Below, one piece after another: positions 28,036 through 64,000 of a stretch of 64,000 nt of DNA. Position 1 is the first letter of the stretch, and every line of letters starts with the position of its first letter. Made by a program: the position numbers and the translations under genes. Source of the stretch: Desulfomonilia bacterium (GTDB lineage: Bacteria > Desulfobacterota > Desulfomonilia > UBA1062); contig CAXXDQ010000003.1 in assembly GCA_963664325.2 (NCBI GenBank), forward strand, positions 512,001 through 576,000, written 5' to 3'. Under the pieces are notes generated by a model. That model ran no database searches. It was not told the DNA's origin and worked only from the letters and a program-made list of their open reading frames with translations.

Positions 28036-31000
28036 ATGATGGAATATATTTATTCAAAAGATTCAATCAGCAAAGGGCCTGAACTTAATATTCTTCCTTA
28101 TTTTGCAAACACCCTTCCTGAGCTTTTGAAAAATGCAATTACAGTAGGCGTCAACAAGGGGATTATTTTTGTTGAAGCCGACGGGTCCGAAACGACATTA
28201 CTCTATAAAGACCTGCTGGAAGAAGCGTCCAGAGTATTAACCGGTCTCAGGTCAAACGGGATGAAGGCCGGGGACAATGTTGTGATACAGGTTGACAATG
28301 ACAGGTATTTCCTTCTGGCCTTTTGGGGCATTGTTCTGGGAGGCGGTATACCTGTTCCACTTGCAATTCCAAACAGTTTTCCAATAAGTGAAGGTTCTGA
28401 AAAGGTTGCGAGCGTCTGTTCTCTGCTCAGGAATGCTTTTATTGTTACGGACCAGGACCCGTCGGGATACAGGGATGTTGTTTCAAGGGCAGTGCTGATT
28501 GTCAGCGATCTTGCAGACAATGAACCTGACAGGAATTATAATGATCCTGATCCTGATGATATCGCATATGTGCAGTTTTCTTCGGGATCGACAGGCGATG
28601 CCAAGGGGGTTATACTCACTCACAGGAATATACTTGTCAACATTTATGCAATAATAGAGGCATCAGGCAATCCGGAACAGCTAAGAATAAGAGACGAGCT
28701 GCTGGGCAAACCGTTAGAGGCGACTGACATACCATACAGCACATGCAGCTGGCTGCCCTATTCCCATGATATGGGGCTGATCGGTTTTCATCTTACACCG
28801 ATGGCCGGAAGCATCATGCAGATCAAGATGTCCACGACCACTTTTGTTATCAATCCGACATTAAACCTTCTTCTGATTGACAAATACAGGATAACACAGA
28901 TACCGAGTCCCAATTTCGGTCTGCTGTGGATGCTGTACATGATTAAAGATGAAAGCATAAAGGGCATCGACCTTTCATGTGTTGACGCTCTTTTTAACGG
29001 TGCTGAACCTATTTCCCCGATGGCTGTGAGGCTGTTTATCGACAGGTTCAGGCAATACGGATTCAACCCCAAGTCCATGTTCCCCGTTTACGGAATGGCC
29101 GAAGCGTCACTATTGGTTACCGCACCGCCAAGGAATAGTGAAACTTTATATCACATGCTGGACAGGGGATCCTTCACTGAAAATCATGTTGCCGTTGATG
29201 CAAAGACAGACCTTCCAGTCATCGAATTTGTTGATGAAGGTTACCCTGCAATGGGGATGGAGCTGAGAATTGTCGATAGCGAAGATAATGTGGTCAATGA
29301 AGGAAAAGTTGGTCATATACAAATCAAGGGACCGAATGTAACCAGCGGCTATTACAAAAAAGAAGAATTGAATTCGGAGCTGTTTTGTGACGGATGGCTC
29401 AGGACCGGAGACCTTGGATTCCTTTTAAATGATAGGCTGACTGTTACGGGCCGTCATAAGGATGTTATATTTGTCAACGGTCAAAATTATTATTCACATG
29501 ACATCGAAGAAGAGCTTCAGCAGTTACCATTTGTGGGTTTTAAAAATATGGCTGTTTGCGGGGTTACGGACCATGACAGAGGCACTGAAAATATAGTGCT
29601 TTTCATTAAGACTAAAAAATCCAAGGAAAGCCTGATTGAATTGCTTGAAAAGATTAACAAGCATCTCGGAGTAAAGATCCGGGTGGGAATTGAAGCCATT
29701 GTTCCGATGCATGACATACCAAGGACAACCAGCGGCAAGGTCCAGAGATTTATATTAAGGGAAAAATATGAGGCCGGAGGTTTCAGAGACAGGGAAATCA
29801 AAAGACTGGATCAACGTATATCTCCTTACAGTGACCAGAGGACAGAACGCAAACATTCGAATCTTTCGATCAGCAAAGGGCCTGAACTTAATATTCTTCC
29901 TTTTTTTGCAAACACCCTTCCTGAGCTTTTGAAAAATGCGATCACAGTAGGCGTCAACAAGGGGATTATTTTTGTTGAAGCCGACGGGTCCGAAACGATA
30001 TTACTCTATAAAGACCTGCTGGAAGAAGCGTCCAGAGTATTAACCGGTCTCAGGTCAAACGGGATGAAGGCCGGGGACAAGGTTGTGATACAGGTTGACA
30101 ATGACAGGTATTTCCTTCTGGCCTTTTGGGGCATTGTTCTGGGAGGCGGTATACCTGTTCCACTTGCAATTCCAAACAGTTTTCCAATAAGTGAAGGTTC
30201 TGAAAAGGTTGCGAGCGTCTGTTCTCTGCTCAGGAATGCTTTTATTGTTACGGACCAGGACCCGTCGGGATACAGGGATGTTGTTTCAAGGGCAGTGCTG
30301 ATTGTCAGTGATCTTGCAGACAATGAACCTGACAGGAATTATAATGATCCTGATCCTGATGATATCGCATATGTGCAGTTTTCTTCGGGATCGACAGGCG
30401 ATGCCAAGGGGGTTATACTCACTCACAGGAATATACTTGTCAACCTTTACGCAATAGTGGAGGCATCTGGCAATCCGGAACAGCTAAGAATAAGAGACGA
30501 GCTGCTGGGCAAACCGTTAGAGGCGACTGACATACCATACAGCACATGCAGCTGGCTGCCCTATTCCCATGATATGGGGCTGATCGGTTTTCATCTTACA
30601 CCGATGGCCGGGAGCATGTTGCAGATCAAGATGTCCACGACCACTTTTGTTATCAATCCGACATTAAACCTTCTTCTGATTGACAAATACAGGATAACAC
30701 AGATACCGAGTCCCAATTTCGGTCTGCTGTGGATGCTGTACATGATTAAGGATGAAAGCATAAAGGGCATCGACCTTTCATGTATCGATATTCTTTTTAA
30801 CGGTGCTGAACCTATTTCCCCGATGGCTGTGAGGCTGTTTATCGACAGGTTCAGGCAATACGGATTCAACCCCAAGTCCATGTTCCCCGTTTACGGAATG
30901 GCCGAAGCGTCACTGATGATTACCGCACCGCCAAGGAATACTGAAACTGTGTATCATCTGCTGGACAGGGAGTCATTTTCAAAAAAGCATATAGCGGTTA

Positions 31001-34000
31001 ATGCCAAAGAGGATCTCCCTGCCATTGAGTTTGTTGACGAAGGTTATCCGGCTATGGGCATGGAGATCAGGATAGTCGATGACGATGATGACGTTGTAAA
31101 AGAGGGAACGGTCGGCCATATACAGATAAAAGGACCGAATGTAACCAGCGGCTATTACAAAAAAGAAGAATTGAATTCGGAACTGTTCTGTGACGAATGG
31201 CTCAGGACCGGGGACCTTGGTTTTCTATTAAAAGGGAGACTTACGGTCACCGGGCGTTTCAAGGATGTCATTTTCGTTAACGGCCAGAATTACTATTCCC
31301 ATGACCTGGAAGAAGAGCTTCAGCAGTTACCGTTTGTAGGTTTTAAAAATATGGCTGTTTGCGGGGTTACGGACCATGACAAGGGATCAGAATCTATCGT
31401 TCTTTTTATTAAAACAAAGAAACCCAAGGAAAATTTGATTGAATTGCTTGAAAAGATTAATAAGCATCTCGGAGCAAAGATCAGGGTGGGAATTGAAGCC
31501 ATTGTTCCGATGCATGACATACCAAGGACAACCAGCGGCAAGGTCCAGAGATTTATTTTGAGGGAACGTTATGAAGCAGGTGACTTCAGAGACAGGGAAG
31601 TCAGAAGGCTTGATCAGCGTATATATCCTGAAAATGACCGAAAAATTGAGCATGAAATCATAAAAAAGGAAGAGGTTCACTACAAAACTAAGGATATTGA
31701 TCTAAAAGGATTATTGAGTGATATGCCTTATGCCCTTGCAGAATCCAACGTGCATCAGTTTCTGCCGCATATAGTAAAAAATCTTCCTCAGGTACTTAGG
31801 ATAGCAAGCCTGATTGCGCCAGATAGCGGAATATTGCATGTGGACGAATATGGGAATGAAAATCTCCAGACTTATTCCGAGCTGATGAATTCGGCTGAAA
31901 GAGTTTTGGGCGGACTTAGGGCTAAAGGTTATAAATCAGGTGATCAGGCTATTCTTCAGATAGAACAATCAAGGAACTTTCTATCTGCTTTCTGGGGGAT
32001 AATATTAGGGGGCATAATCCCTGTTCCCCTTCCTATTCCGGGTTCATTTCCGATCAGTGAGGGAATGGAAAGAATTACAAAAGTCTGCGAAGTTCTTGAC
32101 AGGTTCTGCATAATAACCGACCAGCCTGCACAGAATTACAGATCTCTTGGAAATGTTGATCTGCTCGAAGTTAAGGAATTGCTTGAATTTGCCCCGGACG
32201 GGAATCATCACAATCCCAAACCGGATGATATAGCCTATCTCCAGTTTTCTTCCGGCTCGACAGGAGACCCCAAGGGTGTAATGCTTTCCCATTTCAATCT
32301 GGTTTATACGATTGATGCATCGGCTAAATGTGTTTTTGATGTCAGGGGGAATGATATAAGGCCGACACTTGGCTATGGTATTCATATCCTGAAGCACAAG
32401 CTGTCAATGAATGACAGGCTCGGCAGCATAGCAAAGTTTATATCTTGGGTATCCAAAGGATCTCTTGGTAAAAATATACGCTCCTCAAAAATTGGGAACG
32501 ACATTTTAGATACACTGCTAATTTTCAGCGGAAACAAAATATCCGCTTACACTGATATGCGTTTTAACGAGATAAAGATCGTAAACTGGATGCCATATTC
32601 CCATGACATGGGGCTTATCGGTTTCCATCTGGCGCCGACAATGGGCGGAATGGATCAGGTGAAACTCGAACCAAAGACATTTGTGCACAGTCCGGCGCTT
32701 TTCCTGAAGCTTATTGACAAATACAGGGCGACTCATGTTCCTTGTCCAAATTTTGCAGTTCAGTGGCTGACAACGCAGGTCAATGAAGATGATATAAAGG
32801 GTATTGATCTGTCGTGCATAAAGTGTCTTGGAAATGGTTCGGAACCTATATCACCATCGGTTTCAAGGAATTTCATACAAAAGTATGAAAAATTCGGATT
32901 TGATGAAAGGGCCATGTTCATGAGCTATGGAATGGCCGAGGCGTCACTTCAGGTTACTGCTCCTCCAGTATTTACAAAACCTGTGTTTCACAAGGTGCAC
33001 AAGGATGTTTTTATAAAAGACCAGATAATACTTCCTGTTTCATCAGATGAAGACAGCATTGAAATAACGGATCTTGGCGCTCCTGTTGCCGGTATGAAGA
33101 TAAGGATTGTTGATGACAATGATAATCTTGTCCATGAAAACACGGTAGGTCACATACAGTTGCAGGGATCCAATGTAGTCAGTGGTTATTATAAGAATGA
33201 TGCTGCAAATAAGGATCTGTTCTGTGGACCATGGCTACGTACCGGTGATATGGGATTTATGAAAAACGGCCGTATCACGTTAACGGGAAGACGCAAGGAT
33301 ATTATCTTTGTTAACGGCCAGAACCTTTATGCCCATGATATAGAAGAACAGGTAAGGCGTGTTCCCGGTATGGCATTCCGGGAATTTGCAATAACAGGAC
33401 TTAGGCATTTGGACAGCGACAGCGAGAAAGTTATTCTTTTCATAAACACTACCGAGTCAATAACATCACTTTCGTCTCTTTTATCAAGACTTAATGAAAA
33501 CCTTGTATCATCCATAGGAATCAAGATTGATTTTATCGTCCCGGTCCATGAGATACCCAGGACACCGAGTGCGAAGGTCAAGCGCTACAGTCTCAGGGAT
33601 AAGTTTGAAAAGGGCATGTATGAAACCGTTATTTCGTTAAATGATATAGTCGGGCATCTATCAGCTTCAAAGGATGAAAAGGGATTTGAACTTACTGGGG
33701 TCGAACATCGCATTATTGAAATCTGGAGGGACGTCCTCGGGGTAGATTCAATATCCAAGATTGACAACTTTTTCGACCTCGGCGGCAATTCACTTCGAGC
33801 AACAAAAGTTACATCGAGAATACGTGAGGAATTCGGCATTGAGTTGGGACTGAAGGCCGTCTTTGAAAGCCAGACGGTTGAAGCTCTGGCTAAAGTTGTT
33901 GAATCCTTGACACGAAAGGAACCGGAAGACTTTTCAAAAATCAAACCCCTTGAAAAGGCCCAGAATTATGAACTGTCCCATGCCCAAAAAAGGTTATGGC

Positions 34001-37000
34001 TACTTGATAAAGTGGTTCCAGACAGTCCGTTTTACAACATCCCAGGAGCAGTCCTTATTGACGGAATTGAACTCGATCTTGCTCTCCTTGAGAAATCTCT
34101 TCAGGCTGTTACTGACAGACACGAGACACTGAGAACGGTTTTCAGGACCATAAATGATGAGCCTGTGCAGGTCGTAAATGAGTCATACAAGATTGAAATG
34201 CCGATATATGACCTGACGCACGAAGTCGATAAGCATGAAAAGCTTCAGGCAATAATATCTGAAGAAAAGATCAGGCCGTTTGACTTGGAATCCGGCCCGC
34301 TGTTCAGGACTATGATCATAAAACTGTCAGCTACAAGTAATGTGTTCATGACAGTAATGCACCATATTATCTCTGACGGCTGGTCCATGGCCCTTCTTGT
34401 TCAGGAGGTTATAGGAAATTATTTGGGATTCAGTTCGAAGAATTCATCACCTTATCCTGAATTAGCTATACAATACAGAGATTTTGCATTCTGGCAGAAT
34501 CGCCTGCTTGAAGGAGATGGCATAAAAGAACAGGAAAAATACTGGCTTGAAAATCTATCTGGAGCTTTGCCCGTATTGAATTTGCCCACCGACAGACCCA
34601 GGCCAACCATTCAGACACAGAGAGCTGGCACTGCAAGAATCAAGATTGACCAGAAAACACTGAAGGGCATCAAGGAACTAGCAAGGAAAGAAGATGTAAC
34701 AATGTTCATGATGACACTGGCCCTTTTCGATGTGATGCTTTCAAAGCTTTCTGGGCAGGAAGATATCATAATAGGCTCCCCGATCGCCGGCCGGAACAAT
34801 ACTCAAATTGAACCGTTAATAGGATTCTTTGTAAATGTCCTGCCTATGAGGATTAACCTTTCCGGAAACCCGAATCTTTCAGAACTTCTGAGGCGTGTAA
34901 AGGAAATGTCAATAGGCGCCTACGCGAACCAGGAATATCCTTTTGACAGGCTTGTTGAGGTTATTAATCCGGTGAGGGATCTAAGCAGGACTCCTATTTT
35001 CGACATTACTTTTGAATATCGTGAGGCATCGGCGAATCCTTTTGCAGGAATATCCGGGATATCAATAAAGGATGTCACCGGAGACGATCCGAATTCCAGA
35101 TTTGACATGAGTGTTACGGGTTATGAGGAAGCTGACGGAATAACCATGCGCTTCGAATATAATGCCGACCTATATGAAAGATCGACTATTGAGCGTTTCA
35201 TGGATTATTATAAGAATATAATCAATGATGTTATTAAAAATCCCCAAAAGACAATTTCTGAAATAGCAATACTTGGAGAGATTGAAAAGAAAAGGGTTCT
35301 TCTGGATTTCAACAATACTTCAAAAGAGTATCCTGAAGCTAAGTGTATTCATAGTATAATTTCAGAGAGAGCAAATGAATTCAAAGACAAGGTTGCATTA
35401 ATTAGCAGAGATCGTGAAATCAGCTATTCCGAGATGGAGAGATTATCAGGGAACCTGGCTGTTTATCTAATGTCACATGGAATAGGCAAAGGCGATACGG
35501 TATGTATCCTTTCTGAAAGGTGTCCAGAACTTATCATGGCAGAGATAGGAATATGGAAAACCGGTGCTATGTTCGTTCCGGTTGATCCTGATTATCCTAC
35601 TGAGCGTATCCGATACATGATTGAAGATTCAGGAGCGAAGATGTTCCTGACAACATCTGAGATGCTGCAGTATGCACCGAAAGGTGAAATTGAACTTGCA
35701 TTAATTAATACAGATTCAAAGGTCTGGGAATCAGATAGTATAATGGACAAATATAATCAAGACCCTGATTCCATAGCTTATGTAATTTACACATCGGGAT
35801 CTACAGGAAGACCCAAGGGGGTCAAGATACGACACAGAAATTTGGCAAATTTTATACACCTTAATCTTGATTTATATGGTATCAATTATCAGGATAGATC
35901 GTCAAACTTGGCAGGTGTTGCTTTTGATGCATCTGCGTGGGAGATATGGCCATATCTGTGTGCAGGTGCGATAATTGTATGCCTTGACAAGAATCTTGGC
36001 AAGATGATGCCAGAGGATCTTGCTGAATGGTTCTCAAAATACAATATAACACGTTCATTTATACCAACAAAATTTGCTGAAATATTTGTCAGTGAACATT
36101 TCGAAGGGTTGACTTTAAAAACACTATTTACAGGTGGTGACAGGTTAAGCTTTGTTCACTCTGGTGGCAGCTACGAGTTGATTAACGCATACGGTCCTAC
36201 TGAAACAACAGTTATTGCATCGGCCTGTGATGTAACTCACTGGGACAACACCAGAGGCGTACCTCCAATTGGAAAACCTTTGCCGAATATAAAAATATAC
36301 ATTCTTGACAAATATTTGAATCCAGTTCCCGTAGGTGTTACTGGCCAAATTTACATTGGTGGTGCTGGGGTAGGTGCAGGATATGTTAATGACCCCGAGA
36401 AGACGAAGCAGGTATTCATACCAGACCCATTTACAGAAGGAGCAGAGCTAATCTATGCAACCGGTGACTTGGCGCGATGGCTCCCGGATGGCAATATAGA
36501 TTTTATAGGAAGAAACGATTTTCAGGTAGAAATAAGAGGGTATAGAGTTGAACTTGGAGAGATTGAAACTGTTTTATCTTCCTATACAGGAATAAAAGAA
36601 TGTGTTGTTATAGATAAAAAGGATGATGAAGGACAAATCAGACTTGTAGGTTTCTATGTTTCTGATTTTGTCCTCAATGAAAATGAAATCAAGGATTATC
36701 TTCGTGAACACCTGCCACCTTACTTGATACCTTCAAGAATTATCTATCTCGAAGCATTTCCTCTTACTTCTAACGGAAAGTTAGACAGGACGGCTCTGTC
36801 GTCAATGATTGACGTGACTGTCGATGCTCTTAGGGAGTTTATTGAACCGTCTACACAAACAGAGAAGGAACTTGAAGCATTCTGGAGGGTGTCCCTCGGA
36901 GTAGAAAAAATAAGTGTTAATGATAATTTCTTTGATATAGGAGGAAATTCATTAAGGGCGACGAGGATAGTTTCCTGGGCAAGAGAAAAATATCGTATCG

Positions 37001-41628: not shown

Positions 41629-41635
41629 GGAGTTC

Positions 41636-50600: not shown

Positions 50601-52459
50601 AAACTGCTTTGTCAGGTTATCAGGAAATCAACGATTGCGTGGTTGTTGCACGAAACGACGGAGCCGGAGGAAAGTACCTTGCAGGGTATTATGTTGCGGA
50701 AAAGGAAATCCCCGTTGGTGACCTGAGGTCATACCTGTCTGCCTCTCTTCCGGATTACATGGTGCCTGCCCGCTTTATGAAACTTGACGCCATGCCGCTT
50801 AATACAAGTGGCAAGGTTGACAGGCTTGCGCTTCCGGAACCGGATGCATTCAGGCCTGACATGGCTGCCGAGTATGTCGAGCCGCGGAATGAAATAGAAA
50901 AAGTACTCTCAGAGGTCTGGCGTGATGTCCTCAGAGTGGACAAGGTCGGTGTTTTTGATAATTTCTTCGACCTTGGCGGAGACTCGATAATCAGCCTTCA
51001 GGTGGTATCCAGGCTGAAGAAATTCGGTTATGAGATAAAGCCGAGGCATATGTTCGAATACCAGACGATCGCAGCTATTGCCCCGGTCGTTGAGTTGATC
51101 AGAACCGTAACAGCGGTGCAGGGGGATGTGACTGGCACTGCCCCTTTGAATCCTGTACAGAGGTGGTTCTTCGACCAGAGTTTTGAAGACGAAAATTTCT
51201 ACAACCAGACATTTGTCCTAAGCTCAGGTGTGAGGATTGACGAGGCGGCCATAAAAAAAGCCGGCGAAGCGGTTGTTATGCATCATGATTCGCTCAGGGC
51301 CCGTTTTGACCGGGAAAAACAGGAGTTCATGCCGGCTGGCCAGGGTCCAATCTTCGTCTTCAAAAATATCAAGGACGTCGATGAACTCAAAGGCGAGGTC
51401 ATGTTGCTTCAGTCATCGCTCGACATCAGTAATGCAAGGGTCTTTGCCATGGGTTTATACAGGCAGGACAAGTCCGATTACCTGGCCGTGACCGCACACC
51501 ACCTGGTGGTCGACGGCGTTTCTTGGAGGATATTGTTTGAAGACCTGTTCAAGGCCTACAGCGATATTCTTTCAGGCGCCAGTGTAAAGCTGCCGGATAA
51601 GACGTCCTCATTTAAAGACTGGTCAATGAAGGTCAGCGCATATGCCCCGAAAGTGCTTGAGGAATTTGCATGGTGGGAAAATATTCTGACGGGAGGGGTA
51701 TTCAGTATACCTGTTGAACATGAAAACGGGCTTAACGATGCCGGATCTGCACTTTCAATAAGTGTTAAACTTGATGAAGAAAAGACAGACCAGCTAATTA
51801 AAACCGCTCACCGGGCATATGGCACGGAGATAAACGATCTGCTCCTTACTGCATTAATGAGATCGATATCAGGATGGACAGGTAATTCCAAGGTGACATT
51901 CGATCTTGAAGGCCATGGCAGGGAAGACATATTTGACGACATGGATATAACAAGGACCGTAGGATGGTTTACCACTATATATCCTGTTGTTCTTGATGCA
52001 GGGAAAAATAAACTTTCTGAACAGATCAAACATGTTAAGGAAGCATTAAGGGCGATTCCTGATAAGGGATTTAACTACGGAATATTGAAGTATATACTTG
52101 GTCAGGATCTGCCATTGTACAGCGGTCTGAGCTTCAATTACATGGGTCAGATTACAGCAGACATATCGGGATTGCCTGTAAAATTTGAGGATATTGGACT
52201 GAAAACAACTCATGGCAAGAATCACAGACCAAATCTAATTGACATCATCGGAATAGTATCGGACGGCAAATTCAGGGCGGATTTCATCTACAGCCCGAAC
52301 ATTCACGAAAGGGAAACCATTGAATGTCTGGCAAACAGCTTTATAAATGAAATCAGCAATGTGCTTGAGCACTGCATGGATCCTGCAAGCTTTGATATAA
52401 CTCCTTCGGACTTCGGTCTTGATGTGGCTCAGGAGGAACTGGATCAGATTTACGAATGA
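41636..52459 (+). CDS. NRPS-B: C-A(Asn)-T-C-A(Ser)-T-C-A(Gln)-T-E; split by three +1 frameshifts at about 42970-43183
   Basis: ORFs 41636-43000 and 43220-52459 are in the same frame. The intervening NRPS sequence (FNDT..PFP..KCI, LTYKELDERSN.LA.YL) is recovered by removing one G (42970-72), one T (43094-98) and one G (43179-83). Confidence 0.9.
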
Positions 52460-52476
52460 TATTAAAGGAGTCATAG

Positions 52477-55400
52477 ATGTCGTTTGTTACGAAAGAGAAT
52501 ACGCAGGATATTTATCCATTGTCGCCCACACAAAAAGGGATGCTGTTCCATTCGGTACTTGAGCCGGATGCGCCAGTATATTTCGAGCAGTTCTCATTTA
52601 CTATCGCAGGTAACCTTGATGAAGATATTTTCAGAAAATCATGGGAGCATCTGGTAGCTTCAACTCCTGTTTTCAGGACCGTGTTCAGATGGTCAAAGCT
52701 TAAAGATCCTTTACAGATTGTCCTTAAGGAACTTCCGGTAGACATAGCCCTGATAGACTTGTCCGGGATGGATCAGCCGGATCAGTATCCTAGGATTGAT
52801 GAATTCATGGTTAAGGAAAGATCATCACCATTTAAGCTTGAAGAATGGCCTTTGATGAGGCTGACCCTTTTCAAGCTTGGAAATGAAAGGCATCATTTCC
52901 TCTGGAGTCACCACCATATCCTCATTGACGGCTGGTGCATGCCGCTTGTTCTGAAAGACCTTTTTGAGACTTATCTTTCGTTGATGACAGGCCAGACGCC
53001 TCCAAGACCAATGCGCCGCGCATACAAAGACTATATCAACTGGCTGGCAAATCAGGATCAGGACAAAGCCAGGAGTTTCTGGATCGGGATGCTTGATGGT
53101 TTTGAAACCCCTAATATTCTCCCATATGATTACAGGCGAGGGGAAATTGATGAAACAGGTTCTTCGATGGTACGACTGTCTCTTCCAGCGGATATGTCGG
53201 ACAAGCTTAAAGAAGTTGCCAGGAAAGAGCGTATTACTATCAGCACTCTGCTTCAGGCTGCCTGGGCAGTATTGCTTAGAACATACAGTGTCCAGGATGA
53301 CGTGGTATACGGGACAACGGTTTCAGGCAGACCTGCTGATTTGAAGGGATCGGAAGATATAATAGGGCTTTTTATAAATACGCTTCCTGTAAGAGTGAAG
53401 TTCGATGATCAGACGACACTCTCGGGTGTATGCAAGCAGATTCAGGATATCTCGGTGGGCATGAGAGAATTTGAGTATTCATTGCTGCCTGATGTAAAAG
53501 CCGCGTCTGGTATTCCAAGAGATCAGAATCTTTTTGACAGTATCTTTGTGTTCGAAAATGTACCAACGGATGCCGTCTCCGGAATGAGAAATAATGGCCT
53601 GGGCATTTCAAACGTTAAGGGTTTTGAAATGACAAATTTTCCCATTACGATCATTGCCGTACCCGGAGATATCCTGAATATAGACATTCACTATCATAAG
53701 GCCCTTTTCAGCAATCTTACAGTTTCTCGGATGACTGGTCATATGCGGCAGGTTCTTAATGCAATGGTCGATAATCCGGCAAAGAAAATTTCTGAAGTTG
53801 ATATACTTACACTTGATGAGAGAGAAGAAATACTTATAGGTTTCAACAAAACAGACTCGTATTGGCCTGAAGATAAGTGTCCCTACCAGTCATTCGAAGA
53901 GCAAGTGTTGAAAACTCCTGATAAGACTGCATTATGGTTTGATGGAAAATCCTTGAGCTATATGGAGCTGAATTCCAAAGCAAACTGTCTGGCAAATTTC
54001 TTGAAAAAGAAAGGACTTGAAACAGAAGGTAAAGTTTGTCTTCTCATGGAACGCTCCCTTGAAATGATCATATCCATACTTGCTATACACAAGGCCGGGG
54101 GATGTTATGTGCCGATGGACCCTGAATACCCGAAGGCAAGGCTGGAATACATGCTTGAAGATTCCGCAAGCAGGTTTCTTTTAACACAGGAAAACCTTGC
54201 GGCAAGACTAAACAGGTTGCCTGCCGATGTTGTTCTCATAGACAAAGAGTCTGTTGAAATTTCAAATGAAAATAATATGAATCCGGCTCCATCGGCAACT
54301 CCCTCAAACCTGTCTCATATAATCTATACCTCAGGTTCGACCGGTTTACCTAAAGGGGTAATGATAGAACACAGCAACGTGACTGCATTTCTTTCCTGGT
54401 GTCAGGAAGAATTTCAATTTGAAGAGTATGAAGAGATGATAGCCTCGACCTCGATGTGCTTTGACTTGTCCATCTTCGAGTTTTTTTTGCCGCTTGTTAC
54501 AGGGGCAAGGGTGATCATACTTAAATCATCGCTGGAAATTAATGACTACTTGAATGAACATTCTGCAACAATGATTAATACGGTGCCTTCAGCCATTCGT
54601 TATTTATGCACCGTTGCTGAAAAAAAGCACAGAGTTAAAGCGGTTAATCTTGCTGGTGAACCGCTCAAGCTCGACTTGGTGAAAGATATCTACAGCAACC
54701 TGGATGTCGGTATAATTAGGAATCTGTACGGACCGACAGAGGACACGACATACTCGACGAATTTCAGGGTACCAAAAGACTTTAACAGACAACCTCTTAT
54801 CGGCAGGCCCTTGTCCAACGGTCAGGCATACGTACTGGATAAAAACCTGAAGCCGGTACCCATAGGTATCAAAGGAGAGATCTACCTTTCTGGTGCCGGC
54901 CTTGCACGAGGCTATTTCAATGCACCTGAAAAGACGGCTCAGAGGTTTATTCCCCATCCATTTTCAAATAAATGGAAATATATATATAAGACAGGTGATC
55001 TTGGCAGCTGGCTTCCAGACGGCAACCTCGATTTTCATGGCAGGGTTGACTATCAGGTTAAAATCAGGGGCAACCGTATTGAAATGGGCGAGATCGAGGC
55101 AAGGCTTGCTCTTCATGAGATGATCAAGGATGTGGTAATCGCTGATAAGGATGACAGTGAAGGCAACAAGTATCTTGTCTGTTATTATGTATCTGAAAAT
55201 GAAATTCCTGTTGCCGAATTGAGAACCTTTATTCAGGAAAAGCTCCCTGAATATATGGTCCCATCCCGGTTTATCAAAATGGAGGAACTGCCACTGACTC
55301 CGAATGGCAAGGTCGACCGGAAGGCCCTTCCTGACCCGGGTGATGTCAGCATGCAAGTTTCATCGGAATACATACCACCGGCAGGACAGATTGAAGAGGC

Positions 55401-56778
55401 AATCGCACAAGTTTGGATGGAAGTGCTGGGAGTGGAACGAATCAGCAGGCATGATAATTTCTTTGATCTGGGAGGACATTCACTTCTTGTTATGAAGGCA
55501 CTCGCGAAGCTTAAGTTCAGTTATGAACTGACTATGCAGGATTTTTTCGATTGCCAGACAATTGCCGAAATATCAACAAGACTTGAAGACAGGAAAAACG
55601 CGGTTAAAACTTCCGAACATATATTGAAGGAAGAACAGCCTGAAAAGATAACAGTTGATATAAATGTCTCTGAAGAGAGAGAAGAGCCTGAGCTTATTGT
55701 GCTTACCGGCGTCACAGGTTATCTTGGCGCCCATCTGCTCTATGAAATGTTGATGCGTACGAATGCTCATATCTGCTGCCCTGTAAGGGCTGCCGGCAAG
55801 GATGAAGCCTATGAAAGGATATTGTCTGCATCCGGGTTTTATTTCGGTGATAATCAAATCGACGTTAAGCGATTGATCCCTGTTTGTGCAGATATCTCTC
55901 TCGACGGGCTTGGTCTTGATGAAGAGGGCAGAAGGATTATACGTTCGGCGGATTGCGTGATTCATTCTGCTTCAGATGTAAGTCACTATGGTGAATATTC
56001 TCATTTTAAAAATGTTAATGTGCTTGGTACAATGCGTTTGATGGATTCTTTAAATCAGGAAAAAATAAAAAGATTCCATTATATATCGACATTAAGCATT
56101 GCCGGAGACGCGATCCCTGATTATTCAAAGGCGTTTTTCAGAGAGACTGATTATGATAGAGGGCAGACACTGGGCAATGTTTATGCAAAAAGCAAGTTTG
56201 AAGCGGAGGGTCTTATAAGGGCTGCCCGGGCAAAAGGTTTAAATGCTACAGTTTACAGGATTGGTAATCTTGTTGGTTCAACGGATAACGGAAAGTTTCA
56301 GCGCAATATAGCTGATAATGCATTTTATGGCCTTATCAAGGCAATCTCGGAAATTCAAACGCTGCCCCAAGGGATGGATTCCAAATTCGATATGACTCCA
56401 ATTGATTCGTGTAGAATAGCCCTTGCAAATCTCATGCTGATGCCGCAGACATCAAATCTGTGTTTTCACGTGTTCAATCCCAACATGGTAAGCATCTATG
56501 ATATTGCTGCAGGTCTGAAACTGGAAGGTTTTGACATAAATACAATACCTGCAATAGATTTTATGGAAAGCATTAAAAACAGCGAAGAAGCAAGTAAACT
56601 GATGATGCCGCATCTTTCAGGAAGTCATTCCCCGAAAACATTCTTTGTATATGATAACAGCTATTGTGAGCACTTCCTGAAAAAGGCCGGTTTTGCCTGG
56701 CATAAAATTGAAGGTGATATTATGCAAAAAATTGTCCATTACTGCATTTTGACGGGATTTATAAAATCCCCGGTTTAG
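52477..56778 (+). CDS. NRPS-C: C-A(Ala)-T-R (terminal thioester reductase)
   Basis: HHILIDGWC, YTSGSTG.PKG, GGHSL; R domain with LTGVTGYLG, YISTLS, YAKSK and YRIGN; no GxSxG thioesterase. Confidence 0.93.
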   Translation: MSFVTKENTQDIYPLSPTQKGMLFHSVLEPDAPVYFEQFSFTIAGNLDEDIFRKSWEHLVASTPVFRTVFRWSKLKDPLQIVLKELPVDIALIDLSGMDQPDQYPRIDEFMVKERSSPFKLEEWPLMRLTLFKLGNERHHFLWSHHHILIDGWCMPLVLKDLFETYLSLMTGQTPPRPMRRAYKDYINWLANQDQDKARSFWIGMLDGFETPNILPYDYRRGEIDETGSSMVRLSLPADMSDKLKEVARKERITISTLLQAAWAVLLRTYSVQDDVVYGTTVSGRPADLKGSEDIIGLFINTLPVRVKFDDQTTLSGVCKQIQDISVGMREFEYSLLPDVKAASGIPRDQNLFDSIFVFENVPTDAVSGMRNNGLGISNVKGFEMTNFPITIIAVPGDILNIDIHYHKALFSNLTVSRMTGHMRQVLNAMVDNPAKKISEVDILTLDEREEILIGFNKTDSYWPEDKCPYQSFEEQVLKTPDKTALWFDGKSLSYMELNSKANCLANFLKKKGLETEGKVCLLMERSLEMIISILAIHKAGGCYVPMDPEYPKARLEYMLEDSASRFLLTQENLAARLNRLPADVVLIDKESVEISNENNMNPAPSATPSNLSHIIYTSGSTGLPKGVMIEHSNVTAFLSWCQEEFQFEEYEEMIASTSMCFDLSIFEFFLPLVTGARVIILKSSLEINDYLNEHSATMINTVPSAIRYLCTVAEKKHRVKAVNLAGEPLKLDLVKDIYSNLDVGIIRNLYGPTEDTTYSTNFRVPKDFNRQPLIGRPLSNGQAYVLDKNLKPVPIGIKGEIYLSGAGLARGYFNAPEKTAQRFIPHPFSNKWKYIYKTGDLGSWLPDGNLDFHGRVDYQVKIRGNRIEMGEIEARLALHEMIKDVVIADKDDSEGNKYLVCYYVSENEIPVAELRTFIQEKLPEYMVPSRFIKMEELPLTPNGKVDRKALPDPGDVSMQVSSEYIPPAGQIEEAIAQVWMEVLGVERISRHDNFFDLGGHSLLVMKALAKLKFSYELTMQDFFDCQTIAEISTRLEDRKNAVKTSEHILKEEQPEKITVDINVSEEREEPELIVLTGVTGYLGAHLLYEMLMRTNAHICCPVRAAGKDEAYERILSASGFYFGDNQIDVKRLIPVCADISLDGLGLDEEGRRIIRSADCVIHSASDVSHYGEYSHFKNVNVLGTMRLMDSLNQEKIKRFHYISTLSIAGDAIPDYSKAFFRETDYDRGQTLGNVYAKSKFEAEGLIRAARAKGLNATVYRIGNLVGSTDNGKFQRNIADNAFYGLIKAISEIQTLPQGMDSKFDMTPIDSCRIALANLMLMPQTSNLCFHVFNPNMVSIYDIAAGLKLEGFDINTIPAIDFMESIKNSEEASKLMMPHLSGSHSPKTFFVYDNSYCEHFLKKAGFAWHKIEGDIMQKIVHYCILTGFIKSPV

Positions 56779-56805
56779 AATAATTACATGATAGGGAGTA
56801 GTGAA

Positions 56806-58257
56806 ATGAGGATTGCAATTGTAACCGGGGCATCATCAGGCATGGGTGTTGAATTTGCCCTTCAGATAGACGATGTGATCGAACTGGACGAAATATGGCT
56901 TATTGCAAGGAGAAAGGACAGGCTTGATGAGGTTTCCAGAAAACTGAAAAGGGCCAAAGGTATTCCAATTGTCTTAAATCTGTCCCAAAAAGGTGAAGTA
57001 GAAAAGCTGAGAAACATGATTGCAGACGAGAAGCCTGATATCAAGTTTCTGGTAAATAATGCAGGATACGGCCTTGTCGGCGAATTTGCCCAACAGGAAA
57101 TCCGGCCGCAGCTTGATATGATTAACCTTAATGTTACTGCCCTTGTCGAGATTACTCATTGCTGTATTCCGTTTATGAAAACGGGCAGCCATATAATACA
57201 GGTTGGTTCTGTTTTCGGACATCTTCCAGGAGTGGCAGGATGGGCGGTATATGCCGCGACCAAGTCTTTTGTATCTTCCTTTTCATTTGCTCTTTCCAAA
57301 GAACTTAAAAGTTCAGGCATTAATGTTACTACTGTAACCCCGGCGGGAGTGAAAACCGAATTTGGCGATGTCGCGGGAGCAGGGAGATTCGATCTGGTCA
57401 GCATGGGCTCTGAACCTGCAGTTGTAGTGAAAAAAGCTATTGAAGATGCAATGAATAAGAGGATGCTATCAATTTTCGGATTTGAAGCTAAATTAAGCGC
57501 GTTTCTCCCCCGTATTCTAAGGAAAGAGACCATGCTGAAGATTGTTTCTTCAGGTACGGCATCTAACCAGTCAATAAGTAATTATTATATCAACAGGGAA
57601 GCCAGGATAAAAAAAGATTTTGAAAAAAGCATGTTACTGTTCGGAAGCGTACTGGCAGGAAAATACAACAAGGAAAGGGCTTTGAAGATTGTTTCAGAAG
57701 CGACACAAAAGTATGCCGACATTATTCCGATTCTGCCTTATGTTGGTGGAGACAACCAGCCGATGATGACACAAAGAATTCTATATGCCGCAACCTGTTT
57801 GGCTCTTTATAGGGCTATGAAGGATGACGGGACAGCCTTAACAGAAATCGGGCAGGTTATTTACGATTCGATAAATAAAGAATATTCGACATTCCCCAAA
57901 AATATTCTAACTAAAATAAACAAGAGGCTGCTTTTTTCTGACATGAATAAGAAAGCGCTTAGGAACGCAGCAATAATCTCACAAGAAAGAAGGTTTCCTG
58001 AAAGTGGAGTGATGTTGTATGTTGAAGGAGATGAGAATAACTTTGACTATGGACTTGATATTATTGAATGCCCGATAAAAAAATTCCTTGAAAAACAGAA
58101 TGCTGCCGAATTGACAACATATATATGCAAGACGGATTTCCCAGTCAGCAAAGCTAACTCGTCAGGCCTTTTCAGAACCTCAACCCTTGCTGAAGGGGGG
58201 CGGGTATGTGATATGCGCTGGAAGAAGAATGGACCAGTATCGGATATCGTCGGATAA
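56806..58257 (+). CDS. SDR oxidoreductase fused to an ATC-hydrolase-like (PF14196-type) C-terminal domain
   Basis: N-terminal TGASSGMG, NNAG, YAATK. C-terminal LPYVGG, ECP......, ICKTDF, RTSTLAEGG..CD.RW. Confidence 0.75.
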   Translation: MRIAIVTGASSGMGVEFALQIDDVIELDEIWLIARRKDRLDEVSRKLKRAKGIPIVLNLSQKGEVEKLRNMIADEKPDIKFLVNNAGYGLVGEFAQQEIRPQLDMINLNVTALVEITHCCIPFMKTGSHIIQVGSVFGHLPGVAGWAVYAATKSFVSSFSFALSKELKSSGINVTTVTPAGVKTEFGDVAGAGRFDLVSMGSEPAVVVKKAIEDAMNKRMLSIFGFEAKLSAFLPRILRKETMLKIVSSGTASNQSISNYYINREARIKKDFEKSMLLFGSVLAGKYNKERALKIVSEATQKYADIIPILPYVGGDNQPMMTQRILYAATCLALYRAMKDDGTALTEIGQVIYDSINKEYSTFPKNILTKINKRLLFSDMNKKALRNAAIISQERRFPESGVMLYVEGDENNFDYGLDIIECPIKKFLEKQNAAELTTYICKTDFPVSKANSSGLFRTSTLAEGGRVCDMRWKKNGPVSDIVG

Positions 58258-58290
58258 TATCTTAAGGCATGTTAAGGGAGAAATACACGT

Positions 58291-59034
58291 ATGATGCCCT
58301 GGATAAAACTTTCAAAAGGGGAAAATGATCATTTCAGGGTTTTCTGCTTTCCTTATTCAGGGGCGACGGCTCAGGTTTTCAGACCTCTGACGCAGTTGCT
58401 TCCGGAAGGGGTATCTGTTTATTCATACGAGCTTCCGGGTCGTGGACGCAGGTTTAATGAAGAAATTCCCGGGACACTTGCGGAAATTATCGAAGAAGCT
58501 TTTTTATCTATCAATAGAATTATCGACAGGCCATATATATTTTGGGGGCATTCACTTGGCGGAATAATAGGCTATGAAATGGCCAGACATATAAGAACAA
58601 ATAATCATCCGCTACCCAAACATTTATTTGTTACGGGTATCAGGGCTCCGCAGGTGCCAAAACGGGAAAAGGATGTATATGACCTTCCACGTGATGAATT
58701 TATTGAAAAAATCAAGGAGATGGGAGGGACACCCGAAGAAATCTTTAATCATGAAGAAATGCTGGATATTATGATACCGATCCTGAAAAAAGATTTTAAG
58801 ATATATGAGATGTATCGCTTTACACCGGATATGCCAATGCCGTTTCCAATTACCGCTATTGGAGGACTTGATGATAAATTCGTCTCAAAAGAAGATCTTG
58901 AACAATGGTCTGTGCATACATCATCATTATTCGACATGCATATGTTGGCAGGGGATCATTTCTTTATATTTGATAATATGAATAATATTGCGCAGTCGAT
59001 TGCCAGGGCAATTTTTCGGATGAATCAGAAGTAA
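58291..59034 (+). CDS. Type II (editing) thioesterase
   Basis: FCFPYSG, ELPGRGRR, GHSLGG, GDHFF. Confidence 0.93.
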   Translation: MMPWIKLSKGENDHFRVFCFPYSGATAQVFRPLTQLLPEGVSVYSYELPGRGRRFNEEIPGTLAEIIEEAFLSINRIIDRPYIFWGHSLGGIIGYEMARHIRTNNHPLPKHLFVTGIRAPQVPKREKDVYDLPRDEFIEKIKEMGGTPEEIFNHEEMLDIMIPILKKDFKIYEMYRFTPDMPMPFPITAIGGLDDKFVSKEDLEQWSVHTSSLFDMHMLAGDHFFIFDNMNNIAQSIARAIFRMNQK

Positions 59035-59106
59035 GGGTTTTATTGGAATGCAACAGGATTATCTATGGTTTTATAATATTAGAAAATTAAACTGTAACGG
59101 GGGCTT

Positions 59107-60855
59107 ATGTTTACAGGGAAAAGACATATGATCGTTATTATAATCATTCTGATCTCGATTGCAGCGCTGTCAATTGCTTACCGTTTTTATTCAGCCGGCC
59201 AGATCATCCCCTGGAAAGTACCATCTGACAATTTTGATGAAGATATTGTGCAAACACTCAGACAATACAATGTGCCTTCTCTTGTCGCCTGTATTATAAA
59301 GAAAAATGAAAGCGGTATCTGGGAAATAGTATGGGAGAGTGCCTATGGTTACAGAAAGGCATTTTTTCCAAGAGCAAAGGCGTCTTTGGATACAATCTAT
59401 CCAATAGGTTCAATAACGAAAACATTTTTGGCTACAGCCATAATGCAACTCAAGGAGAAAGGGCTTATTGATATTGACGCAGATATTAGCAATTATCTTC
59501 CTTTTCAGCTCCGAAATCCCGGCCTGAATTACAATAATCATGACGTCTCTGTTCCACCAATAACAGCACGGATGCTTCTTTCTCACCGTTCGGGTCTGCC
59601 CTCGACCGATATGAATTTTTTTGCCGATCATAAAAGTTTTTCCAAAATGGATTTTGGAGTTTTCAAGGATATTAATGACCTCAAGACATATCTTTCAGAT
59701 AAAAATTCATGGGCGCATGTTGATCCCGATAACCCCAGTAAGCTATATTTTTACAAGCCCGGGGATATATACAGCTATTCAAATGTCGGATACCTTATTC
59801 TTGGTTATGCCCTTGAGAATATAATTAACAAAAATAAAGAGCACCTTGGATTTTCTCAGAAGTATGTGACATGGAAAGATTTTATAAGGGAAAAGATTCT
59901 TGCTCCACTTGGTATGGAAAACACAAGATTTTCGTGGAGTGATTATGGTTGGCTTCATTATAACCAGGCTCAAGGGTATCTTGAGAAAAAACATGTGTAC
60001 AGCTTCAATCCGGATTACCCTGCAACCTCTGAGAATAGCAAAAATCCCCCGAGTTATGCCCCCGGTATACCCATACCCAAGGAGATATTGATTCCAAGAA
60101 AGCCTCCTTTGCGTAATCCCACGCTGGGTTTTCTTTATAATTGCGGTGGGCCTGCTGGCGAAATGAAATCTAACATCAGTGAGATGGCTTATTTTTTGAT
60201 CGCATTTCTCAATGATGGTATTGGTTATAAAAGAAATAAGAATGGAGATATAATAATTGATAAAAATGGCAATCCTGTTGCTGTCAGGATTTTATCCCCT
60301 GAGTCAGTAAAAGAAATGAAATTTGTTGATGATCCGAGGCTTTGTTCCATTAATGTTAACCAGTTCAAGAAAGATAATACGGGACTTGGGAGTCTGACAG
60401 GGTACGGCCTGGGATGGATGAGTTCGGAAAGGGGAGGGCGTTATTGGAATTATCCCTGGTTTTCCAAGGCCAGTGAGACCCTGTTGGTCAACTGGGAGCC
60501 TCTTTTAAAAGCAGGACTTAAAAAGAAAGACAGAATATTGTCAAACAATGGAGTTTCCTGCGGCGGGCTTGAAGTATCCGGAAATGAAGGAGACCTGCCG
60601 GGTTATCGTTCGGCAATGCTGAAACTTTCAGATGACCTTGCGATCATCTATTTTATGAATGAATTCTATTCAGATGAAATCAGGGATGAATCCAGGATTC
60701 AGCCAAGAAGGTTCAGATATTATAACTCTGCCTGTGACGGTGCGCCTGAATTAAGAAAAACAGACGGTGCATTTCCGAATGACAGGGTAAAGGTAAGCGA
60801 ACTGGAATATATTTTAATAAGAAAAGCGGCCGATCTCTTGAATGGCAAAAGGTGA
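59107..60855 (+). CDS. Membrane-anchored serine hydrolase, beta-lactamase/AmpC (S12) family
   Basis: N-terminal TM segment; SxxK (GSITK), LLSHRSGLP, YxN (YSYSNVGY), PLGM, GYGLGW, G.LPGY. Confidence 0.88.
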   Translation: MFTGKRHMIVIIIILISIAALSIAYRFYSAGQIIPWKVPSDNFDEDIVQTLRQYNVPSLVACIIKKNESGIWEIVWESAYGYRKAFFPRAKASLDTIYPIGSITKTFLATAIMQLKEKGLIDIDADISNYLPFQLRNPGLNYNNHDVSVPPITARMLLSHRSGLPSTDMNFFADHKSFSKMDFGVFKDINDLKTYLSDKNSWAHVDPDNPSKLYFYKPGDIYSYSNVGYLILGYALENIINKNKEHLGFSQKYVTWKDFIREKILAPLGMENTRFSWSDYGWLHYNQAQGYLEKKHVYSFNPDYPATSENSKNPPSYAPGIPIPKEILIPRKPPLRNPTLGFLYNCGGPAGEMKSNISEMAYFLIAFLNDGIGYKRNKNGDIIIDKNGNPVAVRILSPESVKEMKFVDDPRLCSINVNQFKKDNTGLGSLTGYGLGWMSSERGGRYWNYPWFSKASETLLVNWEPLLKAGLKKKDRILSNNGVSCGGLEVSGNEGDLPGYRSAMLKLSDDLAIIYFMNEFYSDEIRDESRIQPRRFRYYNSACDGAPELRKTDGAFPNDRVKVSELEYILIRKAADLLNGKR

Positions 60856-60912: not shown

Positions 60913-62345
60913 TCAGCCCAGAAGTTTTTTCAGGGGCTCTTCTTCCCTCGATACCTCAACATTATCGTTGTCCGATTTTCTCCTGCTTATCAGAAAACGT
61001 TTAAGCCTGTAATGTGCTTCAGCACTCAGTGGAAAGTTCCTCATTGAGGCAATACTTGCAAGCAGAAAGATAACCGGGATAAAAATAAACATTACCCTGA
61101 GCGTAATAATAAAGGATTGGTCCTGCAGTTGCGGGATATTTCCAATTGGAGGTTTATAACCGGCGAACTCCAGGGCTAGTGAAAGAAGGAAAAGTATTGA
61201 GGCTGAACTCAGTTTCCGGATGAATATGAATATCCCGGCATAAAGGCCTTCCCGTCGTTCCTTTGAAAAAAGATCATCAATATCCGGCATGTCAGGGTAA
61301 ATTGCATATACCATTGCCATCACTCCGGCCATTCCTAAGCCTATAAAGGCAGTATAGAAATAAAAAAGCTATTACTGGGAAGCCAGGTTTCAGGATTATG
61401 CCTGCAACCATTATAAATGCCCAGAATGCAGCACCGGTAATGAAGGCGAATCCCTTGCCCTTTCTTTTGCTTATCATTACGTAAAATGGAATCATGAGTA
61501 TCTGAATAGCTACGAGTGTTCCGATCATGTAGTTTGTTATGCCGGGTTTATTTATATAATAGGACATATAATAAACAATCAAAGCCATTATCAAATCAAG
61601 TGCAAGGTAGATGAATGTGACACTTATAATGAACTTTCTGAAGGTCTTGATTTTAAACGGCTCAAAAAAATCTGTAAATCTGAACGATTTTTTTATGGGA
61701 GGCAATATTTGTACGCCTTTCTTTTGTTGAGAGAAAGACTGCAATGTATGGCAGCGCAAAGGCAATGCCGAATATTAAAGACATTACCCAGTATCCAGTG
61801 GCTTTGTCATAAAAATGTTTAATTATTTCCATCGGAATAACCGCACACAAGAGCACCGAACCCATACCGAAAACCATTCTGATAGACATGGCGGAAGTGC
61901 GCTCGTGGTAGTCCATTGTTATCTCGGTTGAAAAGGCATTGTATGAAGTTGTTACAATACCCATGACAGTTGTAAAGATTATATAGGTGCATAGTGAATA
62001 GGCAAAGCGTGATAATGAGTTCTCAAATCCCGGGGAATACCACAGGAGGAAAAAGCTTAGAGCAATCAGCGGAATGCTGATAAGGAAAAAAGGTCTGCGG
62101 CGTCCCATAGGAGTTTGCATCCGGTCGGTGTAATGGCCGAAGAAAGGGTCAAATACCGCCCCCCATATTTTGCTTGTGAGCAGGATTATTCCGGCCAGGA
62201 ATGGGCTGATCCTGACAACATCGGTAAGAAATATCAGGTAAAGGGTGCCGACAATGATCATTGACCCGCCCAGGATATCACCAGAACCGAAGCATATTTT
62301 TGTCATGAGGCTGAGTCTGTCTGCCGGGTTGGTGTCTTTATACAT
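60913..62345 (-). pseudogene. GPH/MelB-family (MFS_2) transporter, two +1 frameshifts (probably sequencing errors)
   Basis: DPFFG..TDR....GRRRPF, EIT.DY.ERT....RM, PD..D.D......RREG.Y. The frame is restored by removing one base at 61718-20 and one at 61362-67. Confidence 0.8.
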
Positions 62346-63691: not shown

Positions 63692-63731
63692 TATTGACAG
63701 TCGCTTGGCAGGTAAGTCATATATTTATATT

Positions 63732-64000
63732 ATGAACCTGAAATCATGGATAGGCATTATGGGGCTTAAGCAAAAGGTTGTGGCTGAGAACCTCGGCATA
63801 TCAACAAGCTATCTTTCAGAGATACTGACAGGGAAGAAAAAACCCACAATCGAGCTTGCCCAGAGAATTGAGGAATATACCAACAATGAAGTGCGGCGTC
63901 TTGATGTGCTGTACCCTGTGAAAAAGCAGCAGACTGAAGACATTTTGGAGCAGCAATCTAACATGTTTATTTCAAGAGGAACGCCGCTTACGCCCGAATT
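63732..64000 (+). CDS. Cro/XRE-family HTH protein, runs off the window
   Basis: Translated by hand: MNLKSWIGIMGLKQKVVAENLGISTSYLSEILTGKKKPTIELAQRIEEYTNNEVRRLDVLYP...; no stop before the window end. Confidence 0.8.
   Translation, partial: MNLKSWIGIMGLKQKVVAENLGISTSYLSEILTGKKKPTIELAQRIEEYTNNEVRRLDVLYPVKKQQTEDILEQQSNMFISRGTPLTPE

Follow-up and report, generated by a model that had tools for sequence, protein, structure and literature searches.

Can a large nonribosomal peptide synthetase (NRPS) cluster in an assembled genome fragment be read as the plan of a product when its reading frame is interrupted? We considered this question for a 64,000-nt stretch of DNA (the window: positions 512,001 to 576,000, forward strand, of contig CAXXDQ010000003.1 in GenBank assembly GCA_963664325.2, a Desulfomonilia bacterium), in which an earlier reading of the letters, made without database searches and referred to here as the original prediction, had placed a six-module NRPS for a reductively released lipohexapeptide. 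As judged from its domains, motifs, and specificity codes, the cluster is probably a single-operon NRPS that encodes, or recently encoded, a linear N-acylated hexapeptide. A continuous reading frame through every module was not found; it fails between the condensation and adenylation domains of module 3 (C3 and A3). The oddest feature of the cluster is its loader, in which several FAAL-like domains stand ahead of one carrier domain.

Assembly line and predicted product

The NRPS block occupies 28036-60855 of the window on the + strand and consists of seven co-directional open reading frames (ORFs) spaced by 8-72 nt, the sole exception being a 220-nt gap between the C3 ORF and NRPS-B (Table 1). 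In the first four ORFs, Pfam detects Condensation, AMP-binding, PP-binding, and NAD_binding_4 domains (lowest E-value 0). A motif scan returned six P-loops of amino-acid adenylation (A) domains, seven carrier serine motifs, and eight HHxxxDG motifs. By its repeated modules of condensation (C), A, and carrier (T) domains with their core motifs, the system is a modular (type I) NRPS. Motif scans and internal alignments give the order FAAL1-FAAL2-FAAL3-ACP-C1-A1-T1-C2-A2-T2-E1 for NRPS-A, where ACP is the acyl carrier and E an epimerization domain; A3 (N-terminus missing)-T3-C4-A4-T4-C5-A5-T5-E2 for NRPS-B, with C3 in an ORF of its own; and C6-A6-T6-R for NRPS-C, where R is a reductase domain. 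The six-module architecture first proposed from the letters is borne out by these Pfam and motif scans.

Table 1. Features of the cluster and of the genes that flank it, in window coordinates
Feature	Position	Strand	Evidence or detail
Flanking MFS transporter gene (MFS_1), three ORFs	25824-27080	+	Frameshifts
NRPS-A ORF	28036-41628	+	4530 aa
FAAL-like domain 1 (NRPS-A residues 1-605)	28036-29850	+	PRK09192, HDMGL, P-loop SGSTGDAKG, A10 lysine
FAAL-like domain 2, tandem duplicate of domain 1	29851-31680	+	91% protein identity
FAAL-like domain 3, diverged, ~60-aa insertion after P-loop	31681-33690	+	FAAL families top NCBIfam matches
Single acyl carrier domain (LGGNSL) for three FAAL-like domains	33691-33930	+	Motif at residue 1915, Pfam PP-binding
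Module 1: C1 (HHIISDG)-A1 (DAWFFGAVIK, Leu-like)-T1	33931-37080	+	
Module 2: C2-A2 (DAMFLGVTYK, Ile-like)-T2 (GGDSI)-E1 (HHLVVDG)	37090-41628	+	
C3 ORF: C3 (HHILLDG), post-E-type condensation domain	41636-43000	+	454 aa; Pfam Condensation 1.4e-111
Break in module 3, three +1 frameshifts, net +3	42970-43200	+	tblastn with intact C-A junctions
NRPS-B ORF: rest of A3 (DLTKIGEVGK, Asn)-T3-C4-A4 (DVWHISLIDK, Ser)-T4-C5-A5 (DAQDIGVVDK, Gln or Glu)-T5 (GGDSI)-E2	43220-52459	+	3079 aa
NRPS-C ORF: C6 (HHILIDG)-A6 (DLFNNALTYK, Ala)-T6-R (thioester reductase)	52477-56778	+	1433 aa
SDR/ATC_hydrolase-like fusion ORF: SDR residues 1-~260, ATC_hydrolase-like ~270-489	56788-58257	+	adh_short 3.4e-32, PF14196 7.6e-14
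Type II thioesterase ORF	58291-59034	+	PF00975 2.5e-40, 139.6 bits; GHSLGG
S12 (beta-lactamase-fold) serine hydrolase ORF, predicted exported or membrane-anchored	59107-60855	+	PF00144 3e-35
Flanking MFS transporter gene (MFS_2), three ORFs	60913-62345	-	Frameshifts

The specificity codes had originally been read by hand, and all six were reproduced exactly (6/6) when the A domains were aligned with MAFFT and read at GrsA-equivalent columns, a column set anchored on core motifs. Four of the six codes equal or nearly equal canonical codes. The A2 code differs at 1 of 10 positions from DAMFLGCTYK, which is listed among the commonest codes for Leu/Ile/Val, the order of the sentence implying Ile (PMC12283262; papers are cited here by PubMed Central number). 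The same paper has DAQDLGVVDK serving Glu and Gln alike and DLTKIGEVGK compatible with beta-cyano-Ala as well as Asn. A literature text search returned no paper containing the A1, A2, or A5 code string. Of the backbone first proposed, acyl-Leu?-D-Ile/Val-Asn-Ser-D-Gln-Ala, in which Leu was marked as uncertain, the Asn, Ser, Gln-type, and Ala codes stand, and the residue calls at A1, A2, and A5 need softening; because of the Gln/Glu ambiguity at A5 and the mismatches at A1 and A2, we write the predicted product as acyl-(Leu-like)-D-(Ile-like)-Asn-Ser-D-(Gln or Glu)-Ala.

Configuration can be predicted from an internal comparison among the cluster's own domains. C1, C2, C4, and C5 have the motif HHIISDG in common and are 41-51% identical, whereas C3 and C6, each of which directly follows an E domain, have HHIL(L/I)DG in common, are 42% identical to each other, and are 22-28% identical to the other four. 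The two E domains are 48% identical, have HHLVVDG in common, and are positioned after T2 and T5; the carriers that precede them read GGDSI, the remaining carriers GG(H/N)SL. Because C subtypes, E positions, and GGDSI carriers agree, the comparison supports D-residues at predicted positions 2 and 5, which is also where the original prediction, with E domains after A2 and A5, had put them.

Release is predicted to be reductive. The last 384 residues of NRPS-C match PF07993 at 147.6 bits against a cut-off of 20.1, and among solved structures they are closest to the MxaA reductase (4u7w, E 8.6e-36), with which the TGxTGxLG and Y-x3-K motifs align; the family match, the alignment, and both motifs identify a predicted terminal thioester reductase domain and uphold the release step as first proposed. 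MxaA makes an amino alcohol from Ala. Either a two-electron release as an aldehyde or a four-electron release as an alcohol would be allowed by the R domain's sequence. The SDR part of the gene that follows is nearest, both by sequence and by fold, to NADP-dependent alcohol/aldehyde reductases, and a second reduction by this adjacent protein (alaninal to alaninol) would fit.

From the observed domain order, motifs, codes, and break, each chemical step and substrate can be proposed as follows. One or more of the three FAAL-like domains would adenylate a carboxylic acid, most likely a fatty acid, and load it onto the one carrier. C1 would couple this acyl starter to the Leu-like residue 1, and the remaining five modules would extend the chain by D-(Ile-like), Asn, Ser, D-(Gln or Glu), and Ala, with the D configuration set by the E domain pair and by the C domain of matching subtype that follows each of them. 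The R domain, with NAD(P)H, would then free the chain as a C-terminal alaninal, or as an alaninol after a second reduction carried out by the R domain itself or by the neighboring SDR. The type II thioesterase would clear misprimed carriers, and the secreted S12 hydrolase would act outside the cell on the D-residue product, in self-protection or maturation.

Such a product would have precedents in kind. Among linear lipopeptides, the glycopeptidolipid core ends in alaninol and bogorol in valinol, and the predicted line is like the glycopeptidolipid, myxalamid (MxaA), and bogorol systems in its acylated N-terminus, its D-residues, its terminal C-A-T-R module, and Ala as the last residue. The glycopeptidolipid core is a tripeptide-amino-alcohol (PMC3537567). 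The predicted line is unlike these systems in residue sequence, length, and triple FAAL-like loader, and our searches retrieved none of their clusters as a sequence relative. Should the organism carry the cluster intact, what is predicted is an acyl-hexapeptide aldehyde or alcohol that is probably undescribed. Current understanding is not overturned by it, as uncharacterized NRPS clusters are very common in metagenome-derived genomes. Peptide aldehydes are often protease inhibitors.

The break in module 3

The C3 ORF stops at 42998-43000, and NRPS-B opens in that frame with the ATG at 43220, ~56 residues inside A3, so that its P-loop lies at residue 90 as against ~146 in an intact module. With the intact C-A junctions of four other modules as tblastn queries, the missing C-A linker and A3 N-terminus were located across the break, where the coding passes from frame 3 (42972-43091) to frame 1 (43096-43173) and then to frame 2 (from 43196), at 36-65% identity to the intact junctions and with stop codons in each wrong frame. 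Candidate slip sites are G3/A3 at 42970-42975, T5 at 43094-43098, and G5/A4 at 43179-43187. The frameshift that the original prediction had suspected in NRPS-B, and had counted against itself if confirmed, is thus real in the sequence as given, in the form of three +1 shifts.

This break is one of several observations that weigh against a functional line of the kind proposed above. As C3 and A3 lie in separate ORFs and A3 is truncated, the assembly line as assembled cannot pass module 2. Both flanking MFS genes are split in three, which fits decay of the whole locus, and the window holds no PPTase. Single assignments have weak points as well: the R domain reaches 185.9 bits with TIGR01746, under the curated 213.35; C1 does not form a starter type of its own, being 51% identical to C2; A1 equals the Leu code DAWFLGNVVK at 7 of 10 positions only, and the A5 code cannot tell Gln from Glu; FAAL-like scores in the loader stay under the NCBIfam curated cut-off (330 versus 600 bits), and StsA at 267 bits outranks E. 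coli FAAL at 224; and motif III of the S12 hydrolase is non-canonical, with NEG in place of H/K-T/S-G.

The alternative that survives best, plausible although we do not favor it, is that the cluster is a decaying pseudogene locus, in which the module 3 and MFS frameshifts are real and no hexapeptide is made. Three genes at or beside the cluster are broken (25824-27080, 42970-43200, and 60913-62345), no other scanned ORF of at least 150 aa in the window looks split, and homopolymer slippage is a natural mutation route as well. However, all shifts within the NRPS genes fall in ~220 bp and the rest of the ~33 kb is free of stops, where neutral decay would scatter them; by our own arithmetic, the chance of two further shifts landing in that one 220-bp stretch out of 33 kb is ~(220/33000)^2. 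The residues encoded in the broken stretch are still those conserved at the intact junctions. All three shifts are +1 and at least two sit at runs of five, as is typical of homopolymer miscalls; because runs of at least five occur at ~5 per kb across the window, we do not ascribe to chance that two of the three shifts lie at them. The parent contig is 1,210,899 bp long, from which we infer a long-read assembly. Because the shifts are of the same sign and lie within 220 bp, because ~33 kb is otherwise open, and because the encoded residues are conserved, a local cause is favored: the three frameshifts are probably homopolymer-length errors of the assembly, and that they are real has a substantial probability that falls short of even. 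The cluster would in any case belong to a family and not be a one-off assembly product, because relatives with the order FAAL-FAAL-ACP-C-A... and with C-A(Ala)-T-R exist.

A loader with three FAAL-like domains

Three consecutive FAAL-like domains make up the first 1885 residues of NRPS-A, with one carrier domain after them, and a motif scan of this protein found no carrier motif between them. FAAL1 and FAAL2 are identical at 547 of 601 aligned residues, with a repeat period of 1803 nt; FAAL3 is 46% identical to each. At the DNA level, the tandem pair is a mosaic, with 96-100% identity over approximately alignment columns 151-1050 and 81-87% over the last ~750 nt, which suggests gene conversion between the copies. 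A simple duplication introduced by the assembly was considered and rejected, as these are distinct copies with a recently homogenized 5' part.

To place this arrangement, the full library was searched with FAAL1 by HMMER, and the 150 best representatives were each typed by BLAST against the domains of the window. One FAAL-like domain was found in 135 of these 150 and two in 15; the two were directly adjacent in five, and none of the 150 had three. The closest four (P0241-P0244) have the order FAAL(plain)-FAAL(insertion type)-ACP-C-A..., at up to ~80% identity. The insertion type is conserved in P0241, P0243, P0247, P0249, and P0253, and in the last three it stands alone. Because P0241-P0244 share a plain and an insertion type, the pair is, by this comparison, kept in a small family, to which the window adds a predicted duplicate of the plain type. 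In two of these relatives (P0243 and P0247), C1 leads into a module with an Ile-like A domain and then an E domain; relative to them, the line in the window appears to have gained an extra first module (33931-38475).

The domains themselves point in two directions as to the acid they activate. NCBIfam ranks FAAL models first, with 330 bits for FAAL1 (PRK09192) and a second score of 302, both under the cut-off of 600. Their HDMGL motif lines up with that of the E. coli and Legionella FAAL structures, and a region that is gapped in McyG is present in them in a residue-level alignment. Among solved structures, the best match of FAAL1 and FAAL3 is the StsA domain (6ulw, 6ulx; 267 and 258 bits), with McyG (247), E. 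coli FAAL (224), and Legionella FAAL (197) next, and their Gly-Met motif (YGMAEA) is shared with StsA and McyG.

It is improbable, in our judgment, that the cap is something other than a fatty acid, the domains being 2-keto-, aryl-, or other acid ligases and the SDR reducing a 2-oxoacyl to a 2-hydroxyacyl group, the type of cap that bogorol-type peptides carry. The ranking of StsA and of the phenylpropanoid-loading McyG above the true FAALs speaks for such a cap, as does the stand-alone SDR gene in the operon, and the StsA domain selects alpha-ketoisocaproate (PMC11253843). The loader domains are like the KAL domains StsA and Dol15D-M2 in their best solved match and Gly-Met motif but unlike them in the diagnostic residue and in lacking an adjacent KR domain. 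KAL domains have a hydrophobic residue at the position of StsA I306 and Dol15D V219 (PMC11253843, PMC13643306); all three loader domains have Asp there (SHDMGL), and the V219D exchange in Dol15D abolishes keto-acid activation (PMC13643306). Pfam found no in-cis KR domain, and the SDR of the operon is a separate gene. Because of the Asp at the diagnostic position, a fatty acid ranks above a keto acid and is the likeliest predicted N-terminal cap; the "lipo" label of the product rests on these predicted FAAL-like domains.

What the duplication might be for is a matter on which we can offer only a tentative idea, which is that the multi-FAAL cassette is a working device, with two kinds of FAAL-like domain loading different acyl starters onto one carrier. 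The plain kind would then have been duplicated in the window, hence three domains, and diversity of the lipid tail would be built into the first protein. Equally speculative is the wider proposal that this device, together with the fusion of an SDR to a three-cysteine domain described below, would define a new lipopeptide family with reductive release, in a lineage that is uncultured and possibly related to Spirochaetota. The loader is like didomain FAAL-ACP lipoinitiation in that a FAAL-like domain feeds its own carrier and assembly line, and unlike it in setting three such domains ahead of one carrier. A FAAL review does not use the word "tandem" in its main text, and its passages that matched our search treat FAALs of the stand-alone, didomain, and multidomain kinds (PMC11837247). 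A triple FAAL-like loader with a two-domain version in its relatives would be a test case for how an acyl starter is chosen.

Accessory genes, relatives, and surroundings

In the S12 protein, a single hydrophobic segment, at the N-terminus, is accompanied by S102-I-T-K105 and Y224-S-N226; a (K/H)(T/S)G motif was not found in its sequence, and a hydropathy scan returned no C-terminal membrane helices. Its solved relatives include the PBP-related 2qmi and, at weak E-values, alkaline D-peptidase 4y7p, the lipopeptide DL-peptidase Lip3 (9sn1), ClbP, and the Ulm16 cyclase. It is like BogQ, TriF, Lip3/Lip7, and ClbP in its S12 fold, its SxxK and YxN motifs, its export signal, and its place beside an NRPS for D-residues, and unlike them in that the similarity is weak and partial and motif III diverges. 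By sequence evidence, it has neither the C-terminal helices of ClbP nor a demonstrated C-terminal domain like that of Lip3. ClbP activates a prodrug by cleavage after a D-residue, with three C-terminal membrane helices and an N-acyl-D-Asn substrate motif. A ClbP-type prodrug peptidase was rejected as the assignment, as the C-terminal helices are missing and the predicted D-residues are Ile-like and Gln/Glu-like, not Asn.

Could the acyl-peptide nevertheless be a pro-form, with cleavage after a D-residue (D-2/Asn-3 or D-5/Ala-6) by the secreted S12 hydrolase setting free the active fragment? We hold this to be unlikely. The fold with SxxK and YxN, the N-terminal export or anchor segment, and the two D-L junctions of the predicted peptide would suit it, and Lip3, which cuts D-Gln/L-Val and D-Leu/L-Ala bonds, works in this way, Lip3 and Lip7 turning lipopeptides into active agents (PMC12903863). 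However, no more than ~80-90 residues around the active-site serine are spanned by the matches to ClbP (E 4e-6) and Lip3 (E 1e-7), the helices and a regular motif III are lacking, and self-resistance fits equally: in the bogorol and tridecaptin clusters, the D-stereospecific peptidases BogQ and TriF have that role (PMC9231227), and the present cluster is like the bogorol cluster in having such a gene alongside. By analogy, either self-protection or maturation is possible for the S12 hydrolase.

The SDR fusion is rare. It gave 395 matches at E <= 1e-10, and among the best 120, which were examined, are four full-length fusions besides that of the window (69, 48, 48, and 46% identity) and one protein with the C-terminal ATC-like domain alone. 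Cysteines C428, C447, and C474 of this domain (57598-58254) are invariant in 6/6 sequences. In a model of the whole fusion (pLDDT 70.4), Protein Data Bank (PDB) fold matches are confined to the SDR half, and the ATC-like domain modeled alone (pLDDT 73.6, pTM 0.77) has no PDB fold match at E <= 0.001; the best folds below that threshold are Bet3/TRAPP (E 0.056, TM 0.38-0.46) and H-NOX proteins, a weak lead toward a ligand-binding fold. ESM Atlas searches with the SDR fusion and with the S12 protein returned only generic SDR and beta-lactamase clusters, respectively. Because close relatives of each occur in similar numbers, the comparison suggests that the SDR fusion travels with close C-A(Ala)-T-R synthetases. 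That the aldehyde undergoes intramolecular capture (as a hemiaminal with a Gln/Asn side-chain amide, for instance) or is processed by the SDR/ATC fusion to a ring-containing end group is, in our judgment, very unlikely: such a family-specific fusion, with copies about as numerous as the close C-A(Ala)-T-R relatives, and the three invariant cysteines would agree with it, but the acylated N-terminus leaves no predicted free amine, and no known fold matched the C-terminal domain significantly.

Relatives of the other parts are likewise environmental proteins. The C-A-T-R module of NRPS-C has relatives at 80 (P0002), 57, 55, and 53% identity, the loader region at ~80% (P0241/P0242), and the SDR fusion at 69% (P0392); no characterized protein was found among the environmental protein matches to these three. 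Terminal modules of the relatives carry Ala codes in five of the eight checked and otherwise Ser, Asn, or Gly codes, and in P0241, the closest loader protein, Ile-like and Gln/Glu-like modules come next. Because these codes differ, the family is predicted to make related yet different peptides. A scan of 185,579 species genomes with C3 returned nothing above 50% identity, the best of 80 loci (L006) reaching 50% and the window's own genome not being represented; tblastn of the SDR fusion, its ATC-like part, the type II thioesterase, S12, R, FAAL1, and FAAL3 against those 80 loci gave no SDR/ATC-like match and nothing above 36%. On these grounds (no SDR/ATC-like gene, <=36% identity) they were rejected as instances of the same cluster.

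As to the host, ClpA of the left flank is 79-83% identical to its best protein matches, and its closest named relatives, at 64-67%, are mostly metagenome-assembled genomes of Spirochaetota with a few Syntrophales and Deltaproteobacteria, at best a hint of the host phylum. A flavodoxin/4Fe-4S protein is encoded at 945-1730, and an anaerobic lifestyle is plausible. The source lineage is almost without characterized nonribosomal peptides; a full-text literature search on those of Spirochaetota returned only surveys, as judged by title and abstract.

Upstream of the cluster lies an endonuclease III gene on the opposite strand, and downstream an MFS gene and a PAS-domain gene, also on the opposite strand. 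Because these genes flank it, the borders of the cluster were rightly drawn in the original prediction. The remark made there that the window shows no PPTase or ABC exporter likewise agrees with our family scans, in which no scanned ORF of the window matched PPTase, MbtH, or ABC transporter families. No RNA gene turned up in the window by Rfam or tRNA scanning; promoter and terminator scans of the cluster ends yielded no more than weak consensus matches upstream and nothing downstream. The G+C content is 0.39-0.46 across most of the cluster (28001-60000), with a single 2-kb bin at 0.49, versus 0.47-0.53 across most of the left flank (4001-22000), a difference compatible with acquisition of the cluster from elsewhere.

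In the split flanking MFS genes, the first junction of the upstream gene has G4, T5, and T4 runs and that of the downstream gene A7 and T7 runs, whereas the second junction of each is without a run of at least four. Elsewhere in the window, the ORFs at 1817-2401, 20017-20889, 21872-22954, and 10744-11310 (188-360 aa) have no Pfam match at the threshold used, the first three having no NCBIfam match either. A WYL/WCX-domain protein (3-638) is cut by the left window edge and an HTH_3 protein (63705-63998) by the right, and at 14750-18007 there is a housekeeping row of clpS, clpA, and aat (Leu/Phe-tRNA protein transferase), followed by PPK2.

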